Shown: piece after piece, positions 383 to 40,899 of the stretch
Layout: each line of letters starts with the position of its first letter
How positions within the stretch are numbered: position 1 is the first letter of the stretch
Origin: Candidatus Doudnabacteria bacterium
Lineage (GTDB): Bacteria > Patescibacteriota > Doudnabacteria > UBA920
DNA: 64,000 bases
Direction: 5' to 3'
NCBI GenBank assembly: GCA_963837465.1
Contig: CAWINB010000001.1
Coordinates: 11,915-75,914, forward strand
Program-made: the position numbers and the translations under genes
Notes under the pieces: generated by a model
What the model saw: only the letters and a program-made list of their open reading frames with translations
What the model was told of the DNA's origin: nothing
Databases searched by the model: none

Positions 383-3300
383 ATGCCCGTCGATTTTCTG
401 ACCGCGGAGCAGCAGAGGAAGTACGGCCGCTACGCCGGCGAACCCTCGCCCGCCCAACTCGGTCGCTACTTCCATCTCGACGACGCCGATCGCGCGGTGT
501 TGACGACGCGGCGTGGCGATCACAACCGGCTGGGCTTTGCCCTGCAACTGGGAACGGTCCGGTTCCTGGGGACGTTCCTCGACAATCCCACCGAGGTCCC
601 TGGCGCCGTCGTCGCCCATGTCGCCAGGCAGTTGGCGATCACCGACCTGACGTGCCTGAGACGCTACGGCGTCGGCGAGACCCACTGGGACCATGTCAAT
701 GAGATCAAGGCGGCCTATGGTTACCGAGATTTCTCCGACCAGCCCGGCCATTCCCGGCTGATCCGCTGGCTCTATGCCCGCGCCTGGGTCAGCGCCGAGC
801 GGCCCAGCCTGCTGTTCGACCTGGCGACGGCCTGGCTGGTCGAGCGCAAGGTCTTGCTGCCGGGCGTCACCGTCCTGGCACGCGAGGTCGCCCAGGCACG
901 TGATCGGGCGGCGGCCCGCCTCTGGCGTGTCCTCGCCAACGCCCCCAACGCCGGGCAGCGCGAACGGCTGGAGGCGTTGCTGGTCGTGCCCGAAGGTGCC
1001 CGCCAGAGCCATCTGGACCGGCTTCGCCGTGCGCCGACCCGGGTGAGCGGTCCGAGTCTGGTCGCCGCCCTGAGGCGGCTCGAAGAGATCCGCGCCCTGG
1101 GCGTCGCGGAACTCGACCTGTCGCGGGTACCCGCGGGTCGGCTCAAAGCCCTGGCCCGTCATGCCGCCACGTCCTGGGCGGCGGTGATCGCGCGGATGCC
1201 CTCGGACCGGCGGGTCGCCACCCTGCTGGCCTTTGCCCGGGCCTTCGAGGCGACGGCGTTGGACGACGCCTTGGACCTGCTGGACCTGATCATCACGGAT
1301 CTGCTGGCCCAGGCCAAGCTCGCCGGAGAAAAGGAACGACTTCGCACGCTCGGCGATCTGGATACGGCCGCTTTGCAACTCCGCGACGTCTGCACCGTCC
1401 TGCTCGACGAGGCTTGTAGCTCAGCCCGGGTGCGATCCTTGGCCTTCGCACGCGTCCCCAGGCCCCAACTCGCGGAGGCGGTGGCCCTGGTCGAGAGGCT
1501 GGCGCGGCCCCCGGAAGACGACTACCAGAGCGAACTGCTCGATCGTTACCGTCGCGTCCGCCGCTTTTGGCCCTACCTGCTCCGGACCGTCACGTTTCAG
1601 GGCACCCAAGCCGGCCGGCCGCTGACGCACGCGCTGAGCGTCCTGGCCGCTTGGGAGGACCAACGCGAGCCCGATCTCTCCCAAGCCCCCTTGGACGTGG
1701 TGTCGCGTGCCTGGCGGCGATTCGTGATCGGTCCGGACCGGACGATCGACCGCCGCGCCTACACCCTATGCGTGCTGCAGCGGCTCCAGGACGGCCTCCG
1801 CCGTCGCGACGTGTTCGTCGAACGTAGCGAACGCTGGGGCGACCCTCGGGCCAAGCTCTTGCAGGGGACGGAGTGGGAAGCGGCCCGGTCCCAGGTCTGT
1901 CTCAGTTTGGGTCGCCAGGCGACCGCCGCCGCCGAACTGGAATCACTCCGCCGCCAGCTCGACGACGCCTATCGACGGACCGCCGACAATCTCCCGGCCA
2001 ACGAGGCCGTCCGCATCGAGGTCGTCGCGGGGCGCGACTCGCTGACACTGACCCCGCTGGACAAACTGGACGAACCCGCCGGCCTGCGGACGCTCCGCCA
2101 GGCGGTGGCCGATTTGCTCCCACGCGTGGACCTGCCGGACGTCCTCCTGGAAATCCAGGCCAGGACCAACTTCGCCGAGGCGTTCACCCACGTCAGCGAG
2201 GCCGAGGCCCGCGTGACCGATCTGGCGGTCAGCGTTTGCGCGGTGCTGCTGGCCGAGGCCTGCAACATCGGGTTGGAGCCGCTGACCCGCCCCGAGGTCC
2301 CGGCCCTGACCCGCGGTCGACTCGCCTGGGTCCAGCAGAACTACATCCGGGCCGAGACCTTGATCCGCGCCAACGCCCTCCTGGTCGATGCCCAAACCAA
2401 AGATCCCGCTGGCGGGGGCCTGGGGCGGGGGAGAGGTCGCCTCGGCCGACGGCCTGCGTTTCGTGGTACCGGTCCGCACCGTCAACGCCGGGCCCAACAG
2501 CAAGTACTTCGGGGCCGGCCGAGGGATCACCTATTACAACTTCACCTCCGACCAGTTCACCGGGTTCCACGGCATCGTGATCCCCGGCACGCTCCGCGAC
2601 TCGCTGTTCATTCTGGAAGGCTTGTTGGAACAACAGACGAGCCTGCGTCCTCTGGAAATCATGAGCGATACGGCGGGGGCCAGCGACGTGGTCTTCGGCC
2701 TGTTCTGGCTTCTGGGCTACCAGTTCAGCCCCAGGCTGGCCGACGTCGGCGAGGCCCGGTTCTGGCGCATGGACCCCGCCGCCAACCACGGGGCGATGAA
2801 CGGTCTGGCGCGGCACCGAGTCAACACCGAGCTGATCGCCCGGAACTGGGACGACATGCTACGGGTGGCGGGGTCGTTGGCTCGGGGGACCATCAGCGCC
2901 TCGGAGTTGATCGGCTCGCTGCTGCGGAGCAGCCGTCCCTCGACCCTGACGCGGGCGATCGGCGAGTTGGGGCGGGTGGCCAAGACGCTCTACCTGCTGT
3001 CCTACCTCGACGACGAGACTTACCGCCGGCGCATCCTCACGCAGTTGAACCGCGGGGAGAGTCGCCACGGCGTGGCCCGGGCGATCTTCCACGGCCAGCG
3101 CGGCGAAGTCCGCCAACGCTATCGCGAGGGCCAGGAAGACCAACTCGGGGCGTTGGGACTGGTCGTCAACGTGGTGGTGCTCTGGAACACCCTGTACATG
3201 GACGCGGCGCTCGCCCATCTGCGCCGCCAGGACGTCGAGACGAAACCCGAGGATGTCGCCCGCCTCTCCCCCTTGGGGCACGAGAACATCAACTTCTTGG

Positions 3301-3404
3301 GAAGATACTCATTCGCGTTGTCGGAATCCGTCGCCCGCGGCGAGTTGCGACCGTTCCACAACCCGGAGGACGCAGGGAGCCAGGTCGGGCCGAACGCGGC
3401 TTAA
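383..3404 (+). CDS. tnpA: Tn3-family transposase TnpA, split by an apparent 1-bp frameshift near 2395-2405 (N-part 383..~2400, C-part in ORF 2388..3404).
   Basis: N-terminal ~670 aa reads as Tn3 TnpA. C-terminal 338 aa ([22 protein letters not shown] ... YYNFTSDQF ... DDE region) is in the +1 frame. Stop sits immediately before the terminal IR. Confidence 0.85.
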
Positions 3405-3439
3405 CCCGACTTTCTGTTCCGATGATTGTCGGACCCCCC
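3400..3439. repeat. Tn3-family terminal inverted repeat, 40 bp (inner end CTTAAC, outer end a C/G run).
   Basis: Read from the outer end it is GGGGGGTCCGACAATCATCGGAACAGAAAGTCGGGTTAAG, matching the GGGG...TAAG Tn3-family IR pattern. It overlaps the tnpA stop codon. Confidence 0.6.
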
Positions 3440-3540
3440 TGATGGGCCACGAGTCGCTGGAAACCACCCGCCGCTACATCCAGCCCGGCCACGACGACCT
3501 GGCCGCGGCCGTCGAGCGCATCGCCGGCGGGGAGGAGTGA
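3440..3540 (+). pseudogene. 3' remnant (~32 aa) of a second tyrosine recombinase gene, apparently interrupted by the transposon insertion.
   Basis: [33 protein letters not shown] directly abuts the IR. It contains the conserved H-x-x-R...Y C-terminal motif of tyrosine recombinases with no upstream part. Confidence 0.5.
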
Positions 3541-6659: not shown

Positions 6660-7478
6660 ATGCGTTCCATCGCGCTGGTGTCCGAAAAAGGCGGGTGCGG
6701 CAAGTCAACGACGGTCCTCAACACGGCGGCCTGCATGGCAGCCGGTGGGCTCCGGGTCCTCGTGGTGGACACGGACCCCCAGGCGAATTCCAGCTACGTC
6801 CTCCTCCGCGGGGAGAAGCCACGCCGGCCGGCGCTCCTGGAGGTTCTCGCGGCCGAGGCGGAGGCCCGGGAGGCCATCGTCCCATCCCCATCCTTCGCAG
6901 GCGTGGACCTCCTGCCGGCGGACCCGACGCTGGCGGACGCCACGGTCATGCTGGCGAACGAGGTGGGACGGGAACGACGCCTCCGCGTGGCGCTCGAGGA
7001 GATCGGGGACGACTACGACATCATCCTCGTGGACACGGCCCCCACGCGGTCGCTCATCACGACGAACGTTCTGAACTTCGCGGAGGAGATCCTGGTCCCG
7101 ATCGCTCCGGGACTCTTCGGCGTCCTCGGCCTCGGCCAGCTCCAGGCGGACGTCGCCCAGGTCCGGCGGTTCCTGGACAACAAGGCCCTCCGCATCGGCG
7201 GGATCCTGCTGACGATGGTGGAGAAGAACAACGTGGCCAAGGACCTCGAAGGGCAGCTCCGCCAGCTCTTCGGCGAGCTCGTCTTCCGGACCAAGATCCC
7301 GCGATCCATCAAGCTCGAAGAGGCGCACTTCCGCCACGAGTCCATTCTGGCCTACGCCCCCCGGAGCGTCGGGGCGGAGGCCTACAAGGCCCTCACGCAG
7401 GAGATCCTGGACCATGGCCGAGAAGAAAACCGGATTGACGGTACCCGCGGGAATCCTTCAACCCACCACGCCGCTTGA
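6660..7478 (+). CDS. parA: ParA/Soj-family partition ATPase.
   Basis: Deviant Walker A VSEKGGCGKST, ParA-like body, 272 aa. 4-nt overlap with the downstream RHH gene. Confidence 0.9.
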   Translation: MRSIALVSEKGGCGKSTTVLNTAACMAAGGLRVLVVDTDPQANSSYVLLRGEKPRRPALLEVLAAEAEAREAIVPSPSFAGVDLLPADPTLADATVMLANEVGRERRLRVALEEIGDDYDIILVDTAPTRSLITTNVLNFAEEILVPIAPGLFGVLGLGQLQADVAQVRRFLDNKALRIGGILLTMVEKNNVAKDLEGQLRQLFGELVFRTKIPRSIKLEEAHFRHESILAYAPRSVGAEAYKALTQEILDHGREENRIDGTRGNPSTHHAA

Positions 7479-7746
7479 AGACCCATCGGCCGAGGAAGGG
7501 CAGGGGGACGGCCCCGCCCGGGACGAGGGCCAGGAATCCCGAGCGGCCTCCAAGGCGGCCCGGAAAAATAAGGTCACGGACAAGGCCAGCTCCGGGAAGG
7601 TCGAAGGGCGGCGGCTCTACCTGTCGGAAGGCGTCCACTTCCGGCTCCGGCTTTATGCCTACCAGCGCGGTCAGAAACTCTCCGACGCGGCGGAGGAACT
7701 CCTCGACCGGTCCTTGCCGAAATGGGACGTCAGCCGGGTAGGGTAG
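7414..7746 (+). CDS. Ribbon-helix-helix (CopG/ParG-like) small DNA-binding protein, probable centromere-binding partner of ParA.
   Basis: Disordered acidic/basic N-terminus then an RHH-type C-terminal domain (GRRLYLSEGVHFRLRLYAYQRGQKLSDAAEELLDRSLP). Start overlaps parA 3' end. Confidence 0.65.
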   Translation: MAEKKTGLTVPAGILQPTTPLEDPSAEEGQGDGPARDEGQESRAASKAARKNKVTDKASSGKVEGRRLYLSEGVHFRLRLYAYQRGQKLSDAAEELLDRSLPKWDVSRVG

Positions 7747-7855
7747 GGCGGGGGGAGAACCCCCTCCTCAGAACCGGCATCACCCGGAGAGTCGGGCGAG
7801 GCCGGAACGCCGTAGGGCAGGGGAGGCTGCCAAGGACAACCCAGGAGGCCGCGTG

Positions 7856-8303
7856 ATGAGCAAGCGGGACGAATCGAGGAAAGCCTCTCGGGAGGTCGCT
7901 TTGGAGTCGATGGGATGTCCCCAGGCCGTCGTCAACGAGAAGGGCAAGGGCCGCAAGCTGACGCTGCCCGACAGCGTCTTCGACCGGCTGGTGCTCACGG
8001 CGATCCAGCGCGGGTACACCGCCTCGGCGATCGCCGCGGAGATCCTCGACCGGAACCTGCCAGGCTCCGAATCGCCAGCGATGAATAAGCCAGGGCCGAG
8101 AAAGCTTCAGCGCAGCCAGGCGCATCCGGGGCCGGACGATCTACCTGCCGGACGACCTGTTCGAGCGGATCCTGGTCCAGGCCCATCGCCGCGACCGGAC
8201 CATCAGCGAGTACATCGCCGGCATCCTCGAGCGCCAGGTCCCCGACCACCGGATCGCCCGCGCCGAGCCGGCCAGCGAGTCGACCGAGGCCGGGACGGCG
8301 TAG
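7856..8303 (+). CDS. Protein with two tandem RHH domains, paralogous to the ParG-like protein. Apparent 1-bp frameshift near 8135 (ccggggcc run).
   Basis: RHH1 = GRKLTLPDSVFDRLVLTAIQRGYTASAIAAEILDRNLP. RHH2 = GRTIYLPDDLFERILVQAHRRDRTISEYIAGILERQVP in the -1 frame. Both align to the ParG RHH. Confidence 0.5.
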
Positions 8304-8436
8304 GTCCTGTGGGGCAGGGGAGGGCCCTGATGGTCGAGAATGCGTGCTATTGGAGTTCATTTTTTTCGTTGCAGTTCCCCACAAGACGTGCAATAATCCC
8401 TCGGTAGTTCTTGTTATTCACCGAGGAATCATTGCA

Positions 8437-9045
8437 ATGGCCGAGCCGGCCACCAAGATGAAAGCGGCGTTGGAGCTGGTCCGCGAGCAAGGGATGCTCC
8501 GGCCCCGCGACCTGTCCCGGCGCGACATCCCGCCCGACTACCTGGACCGCCTCTACCGGCTCGGGCGGGTCAACCGCGTCGCGCGGGGCCTCTACGCCTG
8601 GCCGGATGCCGAGGTGGGCGAGCACCATAGCCTCGCCGAGGCCGCGCGCCTCGTCCCCGCGGGGGTTGTCTGCCTCCTGTCGGCGCTGCGGTTCCACCGG
8701 CTGACCACCCAGTCACCCCGCGAGGTGTGGCTCACCCTCCCGAGCAAGGCGTGGGCCCCGAAGCTCGAGTACCCGAGGCTCCGGATCATCCGGGCCGGCG
8801 GCCCGGCGCTGACGGCGATGGTCGAGGAACACCGGATCGAAGGGGTCCCCGTGCGGATCTACGCGCCGGCCAAGACGGTGGCCGATTGCTTCAAGCATCG
8901 CAGCAAGGTCGGGCTGGACGTGGCCCTCGAAGCCCTCCGCGACGCCTTCCGGGGACGGAAGGCGACGATGGACGAGCTGTGGGCCGCGGCCCGCGTCTGC
9001 CGGATGGAGAACGTGATGCGGCCCTACCTGGAGTCCCTGGTATGA
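8437..9045 (+). CDS. abiEi: AbiEi-family antitoxin / transcriptional regulator (type IV TA system).
   Basis: LLSALRFHRLTTQSP...RIYAPAKTVADCFKHRSKVGLDVALEAL pattern typical of AbiEi. ATGA overlap with the downstream nucleotidyltransferase gene. Confidence 0.8.
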   Translation: MAEPATKMKAALELVREQGMLRPRDLSRRDIPPDYLDRLYRLGRVNRVARGLYAWPDAEVGEHHSLAEAARLVPAGVVCLLSALRFHRLTTQSPREVWLTLPSKAWAPKLEYPRLRIIRAGGPALTAMVEEHRIEGVPVRIYAPAKTVADCFKHRSKVGLDVALEALRDAFRGRKATMDELWAAARVCRMENVMRPYLESLV

Positions 9046-9963
9046 CGCGGGGGAATCCGAAGGACATGGCGGCCTCGGTGCGACAGCGGCTGCTCAACCT
9101 CAGCCGCCAATCGGGGGAGGACTTCCAGCGGCTGCTGACCCGGTATGGGATGGAGCGGTTCCTCGACCGGCTGTCCCGCTCGGAGCACGCCCCGCGGTTC
9201 GTGCTCAAAGGGGCCCTGCTGTTCGCGCTCTGGACGGGCGAGCTCCTCCGGCCGACGCGGGACCTCGATCTGCTGGGATTCGGCGACAGCAGCGCCGAGG
9301 GCATCGCCGAGGTCTTCCGATCGCTCTGCGCCTGGAAGTGGCGGACGACGGGCTGGTGTTCTCCGCCGAGACGGTGTCCGTCGAGCCGATCCGCGAGGAT
9401 CAGGAATACGGCGGCCAGCGGGTGAAATTCGAGGCGCGCTCGGGCAAGCCCGGATCGACCTCCAGGTCGACATCGGCTTCGGGGACGCGATCACGCCGGG
9501 GGCGGAGTCCGTCGCATACCCGACGCTGCTGGGCATGGAACCGCCGCGGCTCCGCGCCTACCCGCGCGAGACGGTGGTGGCGGAGAAGCTCGAGGCGCTG
9601 GTGAAGTTGGGGATGGCCAACAGCCGGATGAAGGACTTCTTCGACCTGGCCGTCCTGGGCCGGTCGTTCGCGTTCCAGGGCCCGGTCCTACGGGATGCGA
9701 TCGTCGCGACGTTCCGGCGCCGGGGGACGGCGGTCCCGACGGAGCTGCCGATCGCCCTGGGCGATGCCTTCGCCAAGGATGGGGCGAAGCTGGTGCAATG
9801 GAAGGCGTTCGTGAGCCGCAATGGCCTGGAGGGGAGGGCAGGGGATCTGGGGCAGGTGGTTGGCGAACTGGTCGGGTTCCTCGGCCCGCCGCTGATCGCG
9901 GCAGCGAAGGGAGAGGGGTTCGAGTGGCGGTGGGAACCGGCCGGTCCGTGGCAGCGGGCATGA
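9042..9963 (+). pseudogene. abiEii: AbiEii/AbiGii-family nucleotidyltransferase toxin (DUF1814), split across three frames by two 1-bp indels (~9335 and ~9445).
   Basis: GMERFLDRLSRSEHAPRFVLKGALLFALWTGELLRPTRDLDLLGF... continues as LEVADDGLVFSAETVSVEPIRE... and then ARIDLQVDIGFGDAITPG...MKDFFDL in shifted frames. Confidence 0.8.
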
Positions 9964-10019
9964 ACGGTCCACAAGCACCCGGATAGTGAAGGCATCGCAT
10001 CCCCGCCGGCCCGGTTGGG

Positions 10020-10095
10020 ACATCGCGGCCCGTCCGTCAGCCGGGCAGGGGAACCCGTCCGGCCCGGGCTCGCTTCGTCACCCGGATCCGGGCCG
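10020..10095. repeat. ~75-bp direct repeat, copy 1 (module boundary; possible promoter/regulatory element).
   Basis: atcgcggcccgtccgtcagccgggcagggg...gtccggcccgggctcgcttcgtcacccggatccgggccgggccgcc recurs at 11297-11375. Confidence 0.6.
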
Positions 10096-10311
10096 GGCCG
10101 CCGCGGACGGAGCGGTCGCGGCCCCGGGCGATGTCGCCCCGCTCGTCCAGCGGGATGTTCCGTCGAGGCCCTTGAGATCAGGGGGATTTCCCGGGGAAAC
10201 ACCCAACGCGGGCCGTCCGGTGGGAGACGGTCTTGCGGGCCACGGCCGGATCGAACAGGATGGCTGTCAGGGCAGAAACCGCGGCCCCATTCCGGAGACG
10301 GAGCAAACCCC

Positions 10312-10965
10312 ATGTCCACGGCCACAACGACTCGACCGACAGTCTCATCCCCGCCCCCTGGACGCCGCCACTCCACCGGATCACCGTCGACGAGTACGAG
10401 CGGATCATCGAGGCGGGTGCGCTGGAAGATCCCGGCCGGGTCGAACTCATCGACGGCTAGATGGTGGACAAGATGGGGAAGAACGCGGAGCATCGCTACA
10501 CCACCAAGAAGATCCTCAAGGCGCTGGACGGCCGACTGCCGCCGGATGGACGTCGCGAAGGAGGAGCCGGTGCGGATCCCCGCCTATGACGAGCCGGAGC
10601 CGGACGTCGCGATCATCCGGGGCACCGACGCCGATTACGAACATCGGATCCCCACGGCCGCCGACGTGGCGCTGCTGGTCGAGGTCTCCGACTCGACGCT
10701 GGTCCAGGACCGCGGCAAGAGGCTCTCGGCCTATGCAAGGGGCAGGATCCCCGTCTACTGGATCGTCAACCTGGTCAACCGCCAGGTCGAGGTGTACTCC
10801 CGGCCGGGGAAGAGCGGTTACCGGTCTCACAAGATCTTCGCATCCGGCGAGCAAGTCCCGGTCACGATCGGCGGCCAGCAGCTCCGCCCGATCGCCGTCG
10901 ATAACCTGCTCCCCCGCCGCAAAGCCACCGAGGGCAAGGGCCGGCCCAAGGGTAACGGGGCATGA
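10312..10965 (+). pseudogene. Uma2-family (DUF820, PD-(D/E)XK-like) putative endonuclease, copy 1. Frameshift ~10340, in-frame TAG at 10458, net -2 deletion ~10535.
   Basis: MSTATTTRPTVS / LIPAPWTPPLHRITVDEYERIIEAGALEDPGRVELIDG*MVDKM... / EEPVRIPAYDEPEPDVAIIRG...VYWIVNLVNRQVEVYSRPG, pieced from three frames. Paralogous to copy 2. Confidence 0.75.
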
Positions 10966-10968
10966 CCG

Positions 10969-11392
10969 ATGCCCAAGCCCATCCCCAAGCCACCGCGTGC
11001 CGAGGAGGTCCTGGCGGCGGTCGCGGCCCGGTACCCGGCCGGCGCGACGGTCACGCGGTCGGATGATCGCCGAGGTCGGCGGCGTCAACCTGGCGACGGC
11101 GGGTCAGATCCGCCAGTGGGTACGGCGCATGGGCGATGGCCGTTCGCCGACGGCAAGGGGGAGCCCGACCCCGTCAGGTCCGGCCCATCGGCCCGTCGCT
11201 GACCGGGACGGATTGGTCATAGATCGCCGATCAACCGAGCGGTGCGTCCACTCGTCAGATGGGTCCAGTCGGGAGAGCTCCGGCGGCTCGGCGACGATCG
11301 CGGCCCGCCCGTCGGCCGGGCAGGGGGGCCGCCCGGCCGGGCCGGGCTCGCTTCGTCACCCGGATCCGGGCCGGGCCGCCGGAAGATGTTGA
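10969..11392 (+). CDS. Small conserved hypothetical protein, copy 1 (MPKPIPKPPRAEEVLAAVAARYPAGATVT...). Frameshifted after ~30 aa and longer C-terminal tail than copy 2.
   Basis: First 29 aa identical to the 61-aa ORF at 12124. MIAEVGGVNLATAGQIRQW continues in another frame. Confidence 0.4.
11297..11375. repeat. ~75-bp direct repeat, copy 2.
   Basis: Near-identical to 10020-10095 with a few indels. Confidence 0.6.
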
Positions 11393-11497
11393 CGTCCCCG
11401 GCCGGCCTGTGAGTCAATGGATGTATCGGCGAGTCATGCTGATCCGCGGACCATCACCGCCACGCAAGGAAGATGACACTCGGTCGGAGTGAATCCC

Positions 11498-12107
11498 ATG
11501 TCCACCCTCGCGTCGATGCCGACTCAACCGGCGGGCCCGATTCGGATCCCCTGGCCGCTCTACCGCATGACGCCTGGAGCAATACGAGTCGCTGATCGCC
11601 TCCGGCTTCTTCGCCAAGCAGGACGACGTCCACCTCATCAACGGATACGTGGTGAACCGAATGGCCGAATCGCCCTTGCACGGCGCCGTCTGCGAAGCGA
11701 TCCGCATGGCCATCGGGGCGATCCTGCTGGCCGGCTGGCATACCCGCAGCGAGAAGGGGCTGAGGATCCCCTCGCAGATCAGCATCCCGCGCCCGACCTC
11801 GCCGTCGTGCGCGGCGACTGCGCGGGATTACTTGACCCGGTACCCCGACGCGGCCGATGCCGCCCTGGTCGTCGAGGTGTCCGTCTCGAGCCTGGACGAA
11901 GACCGGGCGATGGCCGACATCTACGCGGCCGGCGGCATCCCGGTCTACTGGATCGTCAACGTGGACGACGGCCAGGTCGAGGTCTACTCCGACCCGGGTC
12001 CATCCGGCTACCAGTCGCACGAGGTCCTCGCGCCCGGCCATGTGCTGCCGGTCGTGATCGACGGCGTCGAGATCGGCGAGATCCCGGTGGCCGACATCCT
12101 GCCCTGA
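11498..12107 (+). pseudogene. Uma2-family putative endonuclease, copy 2. Frameshift ~11575 and two compensating indels ~11790-11835.
   Basis: MSTLASMPTQPAGPIRIPWPLYRMTP / EQYESLIASGFFAKQDDVHLINGYVVNRM... / ...PDAADAALVVEVSVSSLDEDRAMADIYAAGGIPVYWIVNVDDGQVEVYSDPG. Confidence 0.75.
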
Positions 12108-12123
12108 CGGGAGTTGACCGCCC

Positions 12124-12309
12124 ATGCCCAAGCCGATCCCCAAGCCACCGCGGGCCGAGGAGGTCCTGGCGGCGGTCGCGGCCCGGTACCCGGCCGGCGC
12201 GACGGTCACGCTGCCGATGATCGCCGAGGTCGGCGGCGTCAACCTGGCGACGGCGGGTCAGATCCGCCAGTGGGCGAGGGCGTGCAATTCATACCGTTCC
12301 GAGAAGTGA
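12124..12309 (+). CDS. Small conserved hypothetical protein, copy 2 (61 aa, intact).
   Basis: MPKPIPKPPRAEEVLAAVAARYPAGATVTLPMIAEVGGVNLATAGQIRQWARACNSYRSEK. Follows Uma2 copy 2 exactly as copy 1 follows Uma2 copy 1. Confidence 0.5.
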   Translation: MPKPIPKPPRAEEVLAAVAARYPAGATVTLPMIAEVGGVNLATAGQIRQWARACNSYRSEK

Positions 12310-12315
12310 CCCCAA

Positions 12316-13130
12316 CTAGAAATCACCATAAGTCTTCACGCGGCGGGTCAGGTCGGAGATCGCCTCTCTGTGGCTCATGTGTTCCTCTCGCCTGAGCATG
12401 TCGTAGACGACGACGAATCGTCTGATCAAACGCTTTTCGAAGCCTTTACGGCTGGTGGATCTCATGGTCTGAACCAGACCCTCGAGGATGTCTGTTGGCT
12501 TCGTTCCCTCCCGGTATAATTCCTGACTGGCGCTACGGCAGTTGATCCAGACGTCGAACACGTCTGCCTCGAAATAGCTCGTCGCCTCGACGAGAAGCAG
12601 TTCAAACTCCCGGCCGGGCGGCATTGTTGCAGCCATGTCCTCATAGAATTCGCGCATCGACTTTTGGGCCTTAGCGAGCGGTTCATAGTCTTTGGAGTCC
12701 TGTTCTTGCAGGGCGTTTCTCTCCCTGGCGCACCCATGAGAAACTTGGCCGCGTAATCAGGCATCTCGGGATGACGACGCTTCGGATCATAACCCCGAGA
12801 AAAACCAGCGAACCACAAACAGAGAGAAACAAAGCCGATCACCCCGGCCGAAATCCCACCCACCAAGACGAGGGTCTTCAGTCTTGAACTTGAAGCCTGT
12901 GCGTTCTTCGGCCTCCACGGTTCGGACTCAGGGCTACCCCTTTCCTCGTCGGTCGCAGGCCGTGTCAGTGCCGGGGGAATCGGCGGCGGAGAGTCACCTG
13001 ACTTCAATGTCAACGGGAACGGGACCACGACTCCCCATCCGCACGACGGACATTTCGACCGCCGGCCAGCGTATTCATCCTTCACGCTCAGATTCTTGCC
13101 GCACGATCCACACGAGAAGCTAATCGCCAT
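12316..13130 (-). CDS. Zinc-ribbon / Pro-rich linker / single-TM protein with C-terminal soluble domain. Apparent frameshift near 12735-12750.
   Basis: N-term MAISFSCGSCGKNLSVKDEYAGRRSKCPSCG (CxxC...CxxC). TM LVLVGGISAGVIGFVSLCLWFAGF. C-terminal domain continues in the ORF 12316..12657 frame. Lies in the ~50-55% GC island. Confidence 0.45.
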
Positions 13131-13757
13131 CGATCGGCCTCCACCTAACGGCCAACACGAACGGCCACGCTTGGATCATGATATCGTGCATTATGTAGTA
13201 TTCAAGACAATCGAGCCTCCTCAGACCCCGCCGGCCAGGCAGGGGCGCCCTTCGGTCGGGGCGTTGGGCAGACCGCTCACCTACTTGCGGTCTGGGCTTC
13301 CGGTCTCGGATCATCCTCGATAATTCACCGGGGACCCAGACGACGCCCTGGTCGAGCCAGGGGCAAAGCGGATTAGTGCACCAAGCTCGTACGCACCGAG
13401 CTCCCCGCCGGGATCAGTTAGGTCGCGCCGCTCCCAAACAATTCTGTAAGCAACCGGTGAGGTACGACAACGGGGACAGATCACGTCGGCCATCGAGTTA
13501 GGCTCCCAGCAGGCCGGGATGCACTCCATTGGCATCTCCGTGCCCACTTCACAGCCTAATGCCCCAGACCTCCTTGGCTGAAACGGCGGGCCATCTGGTG
13601 ACCAGATTCCCTAACGTTAAGCGACTCTCGGATGAAGTGATGGCAGACGATCCGCTCGCGGGAAAACCCACGCTCAGTCTATAATCCGCTTGACTGCCTT
13701 TTACTTCATGACGTAGGTCTCGCTGTAAGGTGTGAGTGCCCAATAAGTTCCGAATTG

Positions 13758-17731: not shown

Positions 17732-18589
17732 CGCCCGGCCCGACGAGCCCGAGGAGCCCGGTCATCGCGCAGATCCTGGCGTCGATCCGGCCGCCACCCA
17801 TCCACCGCACGACGAGAGGGATCTTCGGCTTCACGGCCGCACAGCGTGCGCCATCGCCCGAGCGACACGGGAGGATGACCCGTCATGACCAACGCCGAAC
17901 GCAAAGAGCCGCAGGGAGGCGGCGCTGAAGGCCGCCAGGACCCGCGCGGCGAAGCAGGCCACGGCCCCGGCCGAGCCCGAGGTGCCCACGCGCCCGGGAG
18001 ATCCTCGAGCGAGCCCGCGCCCTGGGCATCCACCGGGAGCGCGGCATCTACCGCTGGGCGCACGAGCTCAAGGCCGGCCATCACCCCAGGACTGGCCCTG
18101 GATGGTCCGGCAGGCCCTCCTCGGCGCCCTCGAAGTCTGGGAGGGGAAGCCGATGATCGTCCGACTTCGAGCAAGTCAACGCCCGCGGCGAGGCCTCCCG
18201 GCCGCGGGTCGATCTGAACGCCCTGGGCGCGCTCCTGGACCGCGCCGCCCTGGGCGTCGAGATGCTGCGCGGCCGGCTCCAGGCCGCCGGAGAGATCCCC
18301 GGCCCCGAGGCCAAGGCCCTGGAAACAGACCTCATCGCCGCGCTGCGGGAAGTCCGGTCGGTCCGGACCCGATCGCGGCGCCGCACCCCATGCACCAGGA
18401 GATGAGACATGCCCCGACCGAAGAAGAGCACCGACGGCCACGGGAAGGGAATCCCGCTGATCCCCTTCGAGGAGGTTGAACGCACCGGAAACCGACCTCT
18501 CGCAAGTCCCGGTCGAAGACCTGATGGACGAGCTCGCCATCGCGGGTTCCTCGTGGCCAAGGCCGATGAGGGAAGGCCCGAGCCGGTCA

Positions 18590-19079
18590 ATATTTGGGCA
18601 GGGACAGGGTAAATATGCAGTTTGAGATGCCGCTTAATAATATTATTTTGGATTTCTACGACAAACTAAAATCCGTTTCCAGCGGTTACGCGTCTTTAAA
18701 TTACGATTTTATAGAGGAGCGGGTGGGGGATTTGGTTAAGGTGGATATTTTAGTGGCCGGCGAACCCGTAGCCGCGCTCTCGGCCATAATGCACCGCAGT
18801 GTCGCCCACACCGACGGCAAAGAGCTGGTGGAAAAACTCAAAACCCTGATTCCCCGCCACCAATTTGAAATAGCCATCCAGGCTACAATAGGCGGCAAAG
18901 TCGTCGCCCGCGAAACCATCTCCGCTCTCCGTAAAGACGTTACCGGATATTTATACGGCGGCGATGTTACGCGCAAAATGAAACTGTTGAATAAACAAAA
19001 AAAAGGCAAAAAAAGGATGAAGCAGATTGGAAGAGTAGAAATCCCGCAGGAAGCGTTTTTGGCGGTCTTAAAGAAATAA
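18590..19079 (+). pseudogene. lepA: Elongation factor 4 (LepA), 3' terminal ~155 codons only. The 5' ~450 codons are missing at the GC-content junction.
   Basis: [30 protein letters not shown]...[40 protein letters not shown] matches the LepA C-terminal domain. The upstream sequence switches to ~70% GC with no LepA homology. Confidence 0.85.
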
Positions 19080-39373: not shown

Positions 39374-39449
39374 CGCGGGATAGAGCAATTGGCAGCTCGC
39401 AAGGCTCATAACCTTGAGGTTCCCGGTTCGAGTCCGGGTCCCGCAACCA
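39374..39449 (+). tRNA. tRNA-Met (CAU), likely initiator tRNA-fMet.
   Basis: CGCGGGA...TCCCGCAACCA with C1xA72 mismatch as in bacterial initiators. Anticodon loop CTCATAA. Confidence 0.8.
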
Positions 39450-39583
39450 AGCTAGTTTTGTATAAGCATAGAAAATTAGCTTGGTTAAAACCTGAAAATC
39501 GTGACAGATTTTGTGGCTCTCTGTCCGAGAGCTTTTTGCTTGCCTGATAACCTGTTAAAAGCCGACGGTCGGCTAAATCATCT

Positions 39584-39660
39584 GCCGGGGTAGCTCAGTT
39601 AGTTAGAGCGTGGGACTCATAAGCCCAAGGTCAGAGGTGCAATTCCTCTCCTCGGCACCA
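39584..39660 (+). tRNA. tRNA with CAU anticodon (elongator Met or Ile2/lysidine).
   Basis: Acceptor GCCGGGG/CCTCGGC fully paired, anticodon loop CTCATAA, T-loop TGCAATT, CCA encoded. Confidence 0.75.
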
Positions 39661-39738
39661 AAAATTAGTTAAAAGTTGAAAGTGTAAAGTCAAAAGTCGC
39701 GATACTTTTAACTTTCAACTCCTAAATTTAAACTTACA

Positions 39739-39816
39739 CGGACTGGTAGCTCAGTTGGTTAGAGCGCTCCCCTGTCACGGGAGAGGTCGCGGGTTCGAGT
39801 CCCGTTCAGTCCGCCA
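39739..39816 (+). tRNA. tRNA-Asp (GUC).
   Basis: GGACTGG acceptor, anticodon loop CTGTCAC, T-loop TTCGAGT, CCA encoded. Confidence 0.85.
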
Positions 39817-39970
39817 TCGTAAAAATTTCCACTTTTAACCAGTCTGTCAAAGGGCTGGTTTAGTGTTAAACTGAGGACTTGTTGTCTTCTATAGTAAAGT
39901 TCAATTTGCCCCAATCTGGAGAAAATTGCCGTAATTTCGCCGGAAGATTATTTTAAAAGACGACTATCCC

Positions 39971-39999
39971 TTGACAGCAGGTATTATATCTGCTAATAT
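39971..39999 (+). promoter_or_regulatory. Consensus sigma70-like promoter partly inside IRL, driving the transposase gene.
   Basis: TTGACA (39971-39976), 17 nt, TAATAT (39994-39999). Confidence 0.5.
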
Positions 40000-40029
40000 T
40001 ACTGTATAACCAGTAAATAAAGGGATTTT

Positions 40030-40899
40030 ATGACAAAATACACAATAAAGGATTTTAATAAGCAGTTTCCTAACGATAACGCCTGTTTAGAGAATATGTT
40101 TCTGTCTAGGTATGAGGGAAAGACGTGTCCGTTCTGCAATAAGCAAACTAACTTTTATAAACTTACTAACCGCAAGGCGTATTGTTGCCAAAATTGCGGC
40201 GATAGTATTTATCCTTTGGCTAATACCATTTTCCATAAATCTGAAACTTCTTTAAAGTCTTGGTATTACGCAATTTTCTTAATGAGCCAGTCTAGGAACG
40301 GCGTATCAGCTATGGAATTACAGAGGCACTTGGGCGTAACTTACAAGACGGCTTGGAGAATGGGAAAGCAAATCAGAATTTTAATGTCGCAGGAAAATGC
40401 AAAACTTAAAGGGACTGTTGAGGCTGATGAAACTTATGTCGGCGGTAAAGGCAAAAATAACAAGCGTGGCCGTGGAGCTGAACATAAGACAGCGGTATTC
40501 GGAATGGTAGAGCGTAAAGGATCTGTAGTTAGTAAGGTAGTGGAAAATGTTAAATCTTCAACTGTAATGCCGATTATGCGGTCTAGCGTGGCTTTAGGTA
40601 GTAATGTAATGACTGATGAGTTTCCTATTTACAACAGCGTTAGGAAAAGCGGTTACAATCACGGCGTAGTCAATCACGGGCAGAAACAATATGTTATCGG
40701 TAGCAAGCACACTAACACTATTGAGGGCTTTTGGTCGCAGTTAAAGCGAAGTATTGACGGCACTTATCACGCTGTTAGTCCGAAGTATTTGCAGTCTTAT
40801 GTGAACGAGTTTGTTTATCGGTATAATCAGCGTCTTGGTCTTTCCCCTTTGTTTTCGGTTCTGCTTGGACGGGTTGCGAAGCTCGCTTCAGCAGATTAA
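40030..40899 (+). CDS. IS1595-family transposase (ISXO2-like DDE).
   Basis: N-terminal zinc ribbon (CPFCN...CCQNCG), HTH (GVSAMELQRHLGVTYKTAWRM), DDE domain (EADETYVGGK...NTIEGFWSQLKR). Confidence 0.85.
   Translation: MTKYTIKDFNKQFPNDNACLENMFLSRYEGKTCPFCNKQTNFYKLTNRKAYCCQNCGDSIYPLANTIFHKSETSLKSWYYAIFLMSQSRNGVSAMELQRHLGVTYKTAWRMGKQIRILMSQENAKLKGTVEADETYVGGKGKNNKRGRGAEHKTAVFGMVERKGSVVSKVVENVKSSTVMPIMRSSVALGSNVMTDEFPIYNSVRKSGYNHGVVNHGQKQYVIGSKHTNTIEGFWSQLKRSIDGTYHAVSPKYLQSYVNEFVYRYNQRLGLSPLFSVLLGRVAKLASAD

Follow-up and report, generated by a model that had tools for sequence, protein, structure and literature searches.

What is the doubled gene arrangement at positions 9986-12310 of our window, the 64-kb stretch (64,000 nucleotides) of contig CAWINB010000001.1 that is filed under Candidatus Doudnabacteria, and to what kind of DNA does it belong? 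Our analysis showed that the region consists of two tandem copies of a conserved operon-like unit, both of them damaged. Each unit comprises an upstream element of about 85 nt with a 12-bp palindrome, a leader, a gene of the Uma2 (DUF820/COG4636) family, a short spacer and a small gene; the small genes of both units start MPKPIPKPPRAEEVL (the longer start is given as MPKPIPKPPRAEEVLAAVAARYPAGATVT). All of these genes and elements read on the plus strand. The first unit begins with repeat copy 1 (10022-10103, 82 nt), which contains the palindrome CCCGGATCCGGG at 10081-10092 as a candidate operator and is followed by the beta-type flank CGGACGGAGCGGTCGC; then come the Uma2 gene of what we call lineage B (10260-10965) and small gene copy 1 (10969-11222), which has the full family length and carries four indels. 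The second unit is made up of repeat copy 2 (11297-11381, 85 nt; palindrome at 11359-11370), the leader typical of lineage-A Uma2 genes (11382-11497, recognised by alignment with L001, L002, L003, L007b, L008 and L009, six of the related sequences retrieved for comparison), the lineage-A Uma2 gene (11498-12107), with three 1-nt indels, and small gene copy 2 (12124-12309), open over 61 codons. The initial annotation of this DNA had proposed two adjacent units of repeat, Uma2 gene and small gene, and the repeat, Pfam and alignment evidence all bear this out.

The assignment of both larger genes to Uma2 was confirmed by a Pfam search with hand-repaired translations, which matched PF05685 with 94 bits (copy 1) and 83.6 bits (copy 2), well above the cut-off of 27, over positions 2-163 of the 172 profile positions in one copy and 2-160 in the other. 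By profile they are ordinary members of a family for which cassettes of paralogues are an already known habit. The nearest relative of copy 1, which runs over 10312-10965 and has an ATG at 10260 in frame with its conserved core, is L007a (88% nucleotide identity, lineage B); copy 2 is 89-91% identical in nucleotides to L001, L002 and L009 (lineage A). Between the two lineages, identity amounts to 57-60% in DNA and to about 52% in protein. Lineage B (copy 1, L007c) retains the EPEPD, VEVS and D..K motifs, like the solved relative 6OKH, and the Lys and first Glu of these are common to lineage B and other Uma2 proteins. When the two units are compared, nucleotide identity is no more than about 60% for the Uma2 genes, about 89-93% for the repeats and 96% for the first ~155-156 nt of the small genes. 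Because the Uma2 genes differ by some 40% and fall into separate lineages, B and A, the duplication was not made by the assembly, a possibility that the initial annotation had itself raised. The order B then A is also found in L007, which comes from a different sample.

The association of Uma2 with the small gene, which had been proposed from the two copies in the window, recurs elsewhere: wherever the upstream side is visible, the short form of the small gene lies directly downstream of a Uma2 gene. It had been conceivable that homologues of the small ORF would lie away from Uma2 genes; the gene neighbourhoods instead gave 12 occurrences of the pair, each with a short spacer (L001, L002, L003, L004, three times in L007, L008, L009, L010, L012 and L015). 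Two adjacent, co-oriented genes are thus kept as a pair across related loci, as is required of type II toxin-antitoxin systems. Since the pairing recurs in these loci and the duplication cannot be assembly-made, we regard the interpretation of Uma2 and the small gene as a two-gene system as well supported by comparative evidence. The related loci are mostly Isosphaeraceae plasmid-like contigs, and the named genome records among them are Isosphaeraceae metagenome-assembled genomes and one contig labelled Rhodospirillales; a scan of the genome collection returned only 4 loci, and a metagenome scan with the repeat core only 3. The arrays reach up to four units. In L007 (6586-12091), four modules lie within 6 kb directly after parB, with Uma2 lineages alternating B, A, B, A and several frame breaks. 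From module to module, identity stays at 85-97% in both the repeat and the small gene, whichever Uma2 lineage intervenes, and the L007c Uma2 is itself chimeric, its N-terminus being of the B type and its C-terminus of the A type. Such mosaic patterns are consistent with homologous recombination or gene conversion acting frequently on the conserved segments.

The position of the module is equally recurrent. In seven loci (the window, L001, L002, L003, L007, L008 and L009), parA and/or parB lie 0-4 kb upstream of it, and L009 additionally encodes an RPA replication initiator. The best reading of these neighbourhoods is that plasmid-like elements of Isosphaeraceae (Planctomycetota) carry the module in their maintenance region, beside parA/parB. 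Interspersed with it are further genes for toxin-antitoxin systems or defence: the window and L005 carry AbiEi/AbiEii, L001 has ParE/YafQ, L002 has TIR, L008 has TacA together with an acetyltransferase, and L010 has HEPN_AbiU2. In L005 (173-1794), the AbiE cassette is flanked by a small gene on one side and by a repeat-Uma2 unit on the other, which looks like an insertion into an array.

The repeat had been described as a shared element of about 75 bp. It is indeed present before each unit, but its length is 82 and 85 nt, and the two copies differ by one 3-nt indel. A 38-mer common to both is present at exactly two places in the window (0 expected from 100 shuffles), and so is a 30-mer pattern, none being expected by chance. 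A profile of the two window copies located the element, in gene orientation, in 11 of the fetched loci (L001-L003, L005-L009 and L011-L013); where a Uma2 gene follows, it starts about 70-210 nt downstream, and in L001 and L002 an additional copy lies after the last small gene. The alignment of 12 copies has a mean column identity of 83%, with an almost invariant 3' half (GGGCTCGCTYCGTCACCCGGATCCGGGCCGGGCC). Exact copies of the perfect palindrome are confined to the repeats, both in the window and in the loci; about 0.18 matches with up to one mismatch would be expected by chance in the window. An alignment fold of the 12 copies detected no RNA covariation (term +0.62; 1 of 24 pairs compensatory), single-sequence folds were unremarkable (z of +0.27, -0.86 and -0.27) except for the minus strand of copy 2 (-2.57), and an Rfam scan of the whole window returned four tRNAs only, with no match within 9986-12310. 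A structured RNA was rejected on the covariation result. The absence of covariation means that sequence rather than structure is conserved, which points to a protein-binding DNA site, and we infer that the protein binding its palindrome would be the winged-helix-like product of the adjacent small gene. The leader between repeat and gene is near-identical in the lineage-A loci L001, L002, L003, L007b, L008 and L009; it has TTGACG at 11389-11394 and GTCAAT at 11413-11418 and is a possible promoter or operator region. Scans for sigma-70 promoters and terminators gave 0 matches in 9900-12700, leader included.

The initial annotation considered copy 2 of the small gene to be intact. Its 61-codon reading frame is open, but family members are normally 84-86 aa long, the full-length ones ending in ...GRWPFANGKGARPSQVRPIGPSRLTGTDWS, and copy 2 is therefore truncated: its homology stops at about nucleotide 12282 (residue ~52, the end of helix 3), and the wing and tail are replaced by about nine unrelated codons. 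Among 5.8 billion proteins, 73 are close relatives of the 61-aa product, and not one of these has a Pfam domain; the small protein has no match in Pfam, NCBIfam or PADLOC, and a lookup of the exact copy 2 protein gave no record. An AlphaFold2 model built with 24 family members (mean pLDDT 78) has helices at residues 11-21, 30-37 and 41-53 and a low-confidence C-terminal third. The predicted architecture is therefore a DNA-binding domain of three helices, similar to a winged helix, followed by a disordered but conserved tail. A profile search of 1.84 billion representatives extended the family to 106 proteins. The distant relatives (95-135 aa) carry an N-terminal extension and have the helix-turn-helix core and the RWPY motif in common with the short form, to which the tail past that motif (residues ~66-84) is restricted. 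A two-domain relative in L015 is again found downstream of a Uma2 gene. L016 and L017 (4001-4399) encode a distant relative of 132 aa, with the N-terminal extension; the surrounding element resembles a prophage, having genes for integrase, resolvase and capsid, and contains no Uma2. Many metagenomic members (P0003, P0007, P0014, P0046, P0047, P0074 and P0076) have their C-terminal halves in an alternative frame; these forms are 77 aa long and end ...SGPSARRA, one leaves the frame and then returns to it, and some lie on contigs of the Joint Genome Institute (JGI). They could reflect recurrent real frameshifts or systematic errors in a GC-rich stretch.

How might the two proteins work together? 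We give an even chance to the reading that the module is a toxin-first type II toxin-antitoxin-like or regulated-nuclease operon of Isosphaeraceae plasmids, whose copies in the window have been damaged mainly by consensus errors. The small protein would bind the palindrome and control transcription of the operon, its tail may contact and restrain Uma2, and the pair would help to keep the plasmid or to defend it; homologous recombination at the near-identical repeats and small genes would give rise to the arrays and mosaics as Uma2 diversifies. Toxin-first type II operons are of the higBA, hicAB and mqsRA style. The module resembles them in its two short co-oriented genes with a short spacer and a palindrome upstream, in a second protein with a predicted DNA-binding domain and a disordered tail, and in its place in a plasmid maintenance region among other toxin-antitoxin pairs. 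It differs in that neither Uma2 nor the small protein matches a validated toxin or antitoxin family by sequence or profile, and in that the small partner does not co-vary with the Uma2 lineage. Uma2/COG4636 has been viewed as a likely solo toxin linked to toxin-antitoxin systems, occurring in cassettes of paralogues and rarely linked to antitoxins (PMC2701414), and is predicted to be a PD-(D/E)XK endonuclease of uncharacterised function (PMC3424549, PMC1274311). The match of the Uma2 proteins to the PADLOC defence candidate PDC-S03, described below, counts in favour of this reading too.

Several observations weigh against this reading. Neither toxicity nor nuclease activity of Uma2 has been demonstrated experimentally (PMC1274311, PMC3424549), and no functional study of Uma2 was found in the literature searched. 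In a by-eye reading of the alignment, lineage-A Uma2 proteins keep PD and EVS, but the Lys is replaced by Met or Leu and the first Glu by His. For the small protein, the top Foldseek matches against the PDB are all winged-helix proteins (MarR, GntR, CRP and DeoR), at a non-significant E of about 1. The small protein shows no co-variation with the lineage of the Uma2 that precedes it, which would be unusual for a specific antitoxin and fits better with a pure regulator, and the mosaic patterns do not fit a partner co-evolving with its own Uma2. Finally, L006 (5142-5292 and 5989-6116) has an apparently intact Uma2 gene, and of its small gene only the first 15-20 codons or so remain, fused with the following repeat at a common 10-nt stretch, TCGCGGCC(C/T)G. 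To judge from this junction, the event is a deletion by short homology that left Uma2 without a partner in cis, and since that Uma2 is apparently intact, the partner is not strictly needed in cis.

The part of the reading that concerns the damage has to be set against the possibility that the lesions are present in the DNA. Frameshifts had been noted in both Uma2 copies and in small gene copy 1, together with an in-frame TAG in Uma2 copy 1, and comparison with relatives bears out each of these. The TAG is a private change from TAC (10458-10460), and private 1-nt deletions lie near 10541 and 10557. One apparent shift in that gene has another character: the core does not share the frame of the ATG at 10312, the start typical of the family, and because L007a has the same offset it is not specific to the window. 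Small gene copy 1 has indels of +1 near 11056, -1 near 11124, +2 near 11157 and -3 near 11199. Uma2 copy 2 has a private +1 near 11572, a -1 near 11792 that is also found in L009 and L007b, and a private +1 near 11817, the latter two scrambling the eight codons in which the PD motif lies. Neither Uma2 copy in the window has an uninterrupted reading frame and, judging from these sequences, neither copy of the module is functional as written.

We consider it rather probable that most of the private 1-2-nt indels are long-read consensus errors. In an alignment of seven lineage-A sequences over about 980 nt, the window has no private substitution and two private 1-nt insertions (11572 and 11817), and the other sequences have 3-52 private substitutions each. 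Intact modules are carried by L003, which has a NODE_ name, and by L012, a 1.4-kb JGI contig; both look like short-read assemblies, as L012 presumably is. In related contigs with long-read-style names, frame breaks occur even in parA and parB. Elsewhere in the window, the Tn3 transposase gene is split once and AbiEii twice, and the end of the high-GC segment inside lepA and the full-length Pfam matches of low-GC genes (see below) also speak for errors. These observations speak against the opposing explanation that both copies are pseudogenes, decaying remnants of a selfish multi-copy module whose frameshifts and stop are real: mutation would not be expected to give two insertions and no substitution in unit 2, the short-read-looking contigs are intact, the partition genes of related long-read contigs are frameshifted too, and the segment abuts a probably foreign genome inside lepA (see below). 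This explanation is nevertheless a serious one, if the less probable. The density of indels, a further point that counts against damage mainly by error, is about eight times higher in the module (~10 in 2.3 kb) than nearby, in the genes for the Tn3 transposase, ParA and AbiE (1 in 3 kb for the transposase and 0 in parA), and many metagenomes, JGI contigs included, have small proteins whose C-terminus is frameshifted. Some lesions are also common to several samples. L009, from a different sample and 93% identical over 11329-12708, has the same truncated small-gene junction and the same downstream genes, so that the truncation of small gene copy 2 is inherited; so is the start-frame offset, which L007a has, and L009 and L007b have the -1 near 11792. 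The last of these is possibly an inherited defect, and it could also be a recurrent systematic error, because it turns a C4 run into C3. The denser indels in the module and the lesions common to several samples suggest that real decay contributes, and in our judgement both decay and errors do.

For the function of an undamaged module, the first competitor of the toxin-antitoxin-like reading is that Uma2 acts as a stand-alone anti-phage or anti-plasmid nuclease, with the small protein only a transcriptional regulator at the palindromic repeat that makes no neutralising contact. Uma2 proteins of both lineages match the models of the PADLOC candidate PDC-S03 (E of 1e-13 and 4e-8), and COG4636 has been tallied among the restriction endonucleases in defence cargo (PMC8649781). 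A near-identical small protein beside Uma2 proteins that are only about 52% identical would fit a mere regulator, and the distant relatives in prophage-like elements without Uma2, as well as the neighbouring AbiE, ParE/YafQ, TIR and HEPN_AbiU2 genes, agree with it. However, PDC-S03 is itself only a guilt-by-association candidate and a single-gene one, and the small partner has no counterpart in PADLOC; no methylase is consistently adjacent; and the conserved tail of the Uma2-linked subfamily (residues ~66-84) is left unexplained. We hold this alternative to be possible but doubtful. The same evidence might be combined differently, in an autoregulated pair of Uma2 nuclease and winged-helix protein whose repeats and small genes serve as recombination arms for swapping and stacking Uma2 alleles with no dedicated recombinase. 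Uma2, of a very large and functionally uncharacterised family, would then have a partner and a DNA site dedicated to it. This combination is improbable as it stands; if true, plasmids would possess here a means of diversifying cassettes that serves their maintenance or defence.

Slightly less probable still is that recombination is the purpose of the module, the repeat being a recombination site and Uma2 driving duplication, exchange or gene conversion of cassettes in an integron-like, integrase-free array beside the par locus. As in integron cassettes, direct repeats of about 85 nt with inverted symmetry separate the units of an array of one orientation. They bracket other cargo as well (AbiE in the window and L005, ParE/YafQ in L001), the centre is variable between conserved flanks, with the L007c chimera as an example, and the L006 deletion at a shared 10-nt stretch and arrays of up to four units are in line with this explanation. 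These patterns are, however, equally given by ordinary homologous recombination between segments that are 85-97% identical, and no recombinase is consistently adjacent. The search beside the arrays returned no integrase, with a partial Phage_integrase gene 4 kb away in L002 only. The repeat precedes the leader here, rather than forming the 3' end of a promoterless cassette, and it is conserved in sequence and not in structure, with no attC-like structural covariation. An integron-like attC array was rejected since it has neither an adjacent integrase nor a conserved folded structure. The weakest explanation, centromere- or iteron-like repeats with the small protein as a centromere-binding adaptor, draws on direct repeats with a palindrome inside and on a module that is always just downstream of parA/parB with two types of ParA, and is very unlikely: we rejected it because there is one repeat per gene unit, before each gene start and 1.1-1.3 kb from the next, unlike clustered centromere or iteron repeats, and it further leaves the invariable Uma2 partner unexplained and supplies an adaptor to loci where ParB is already present as an HTH_ParB protein.

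The toxin-antitoxin-like or regulated-nuclease operon, which remains our preferred reading, bears on a family that ranks among the larger ones in bacteria for which no function has been demonstrated and that is usually described as solo genes or paralogue cassettes (PMC2701414, PMC1274311). The genes described here share with that family a predicted PD-(D/E)XK fold class, of which 6OKH and 9Y1L are solved relatives (PMC3424549), and the tandem arrays of diverged paralogues known from cyanobacterial cassettes (PMC2701414). Unlike the mostly solo genes of the literature, each is followed by a fixed partner and preceded by a conserved element with a palindrome; their host is Isosphaeraceae plasmid-like DNA rather than cyanobacteria or Thermus, and in the window they are broken. 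No description of the fixed winged-helix-like partner and the palindromic repeat was found in the literature and databases searched. A lineage with a constant small partner and a palindromic element gives a concrete, testable handle on Uma2, and it documents a feature of the backbone of the little-studied Isosphaeraceae plasmids. The window itself is a poor exemplar of the module, its copies being broken and the stretch that carries them probably error-rich and probably misjoined.

This last point concerns the contig as a whole. The GC content switches abruptly at about 18,590, within 18560-19079, from 66-70% (about 68%) before to 42-50% (about 45%) after. The high-GC segment is 18.6 kb long, and the low-GC side starts partway through lepA, with housekeeping genes beyond it. 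Of lepA, only the last ~160 codons are present (positions 40-76 of EFG_C and all of LepA_C). Further genes of the low-GC side give end-to-end Pfam matches, for example RPE65 (1-468 of 469), AcrB (2-1018 of 1021) and the ATP synthase alpha and beta subunits, and related plasmid-like contigs (L001 and L009) extend past the point of the junction. The GC switch, the partial lepA gene, the homologous contigs that continue and the intact low-GC genes together suggest that the join is chimeric and its high-GC end poorly supported, and the Isosphaeraceae plasmid-like fragment has thus probably been misjoined to another genome; its insertion into lepA would be the less probable alternative.

Among the remaining features of the high-GC segment, a ParA-type partition ATPase (6660-7478, plus strand) marks the plasmid-like backbone. 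This ParA is only 33% identical to that of the L001 type, and no ParB with an HTH_ParB domain follows it. Within 7478-8344, a short conserved stretch (8115-8304) matches an 81-aa ORF that comes after ParA in L008 (6730-6975). The par locus of the window may, on these comparisons, represent a different type of partition system. The AbiEi/AbiEii toxin-antitoxin pair (8344-9963, plus strand) is located directly upstream of repeat copy 1, and AbiEii, 92.5% identical to its L005 counterpart, lacks by comparison one nucleotide near 9332 and another near 9439. Further upstream, 383-3442 encodes a Tn3-family transposase (DUF4158 and DDE_Tnp_Tn3) with one frameshift near 2400, positions 1-87 of the DDE profile lying in one frame and 87-389 in another. 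Downstream of small gene copy 2, the stretch 12316-13236 has a lower GC content (about 59%) and is 93-95% identical to L009; it holds a minus-strand ORF of 113 aa without a family match and an ORF of 222 aa whose zinc-ribbon-like matches are weak and all below threshold. On the low-GC side of the junction, three tRNA genes are clustered (39374, 39584 and 39740) within 39374-40899, and the cluster is followed by a transposase of the IS1595 family (40030-40899).

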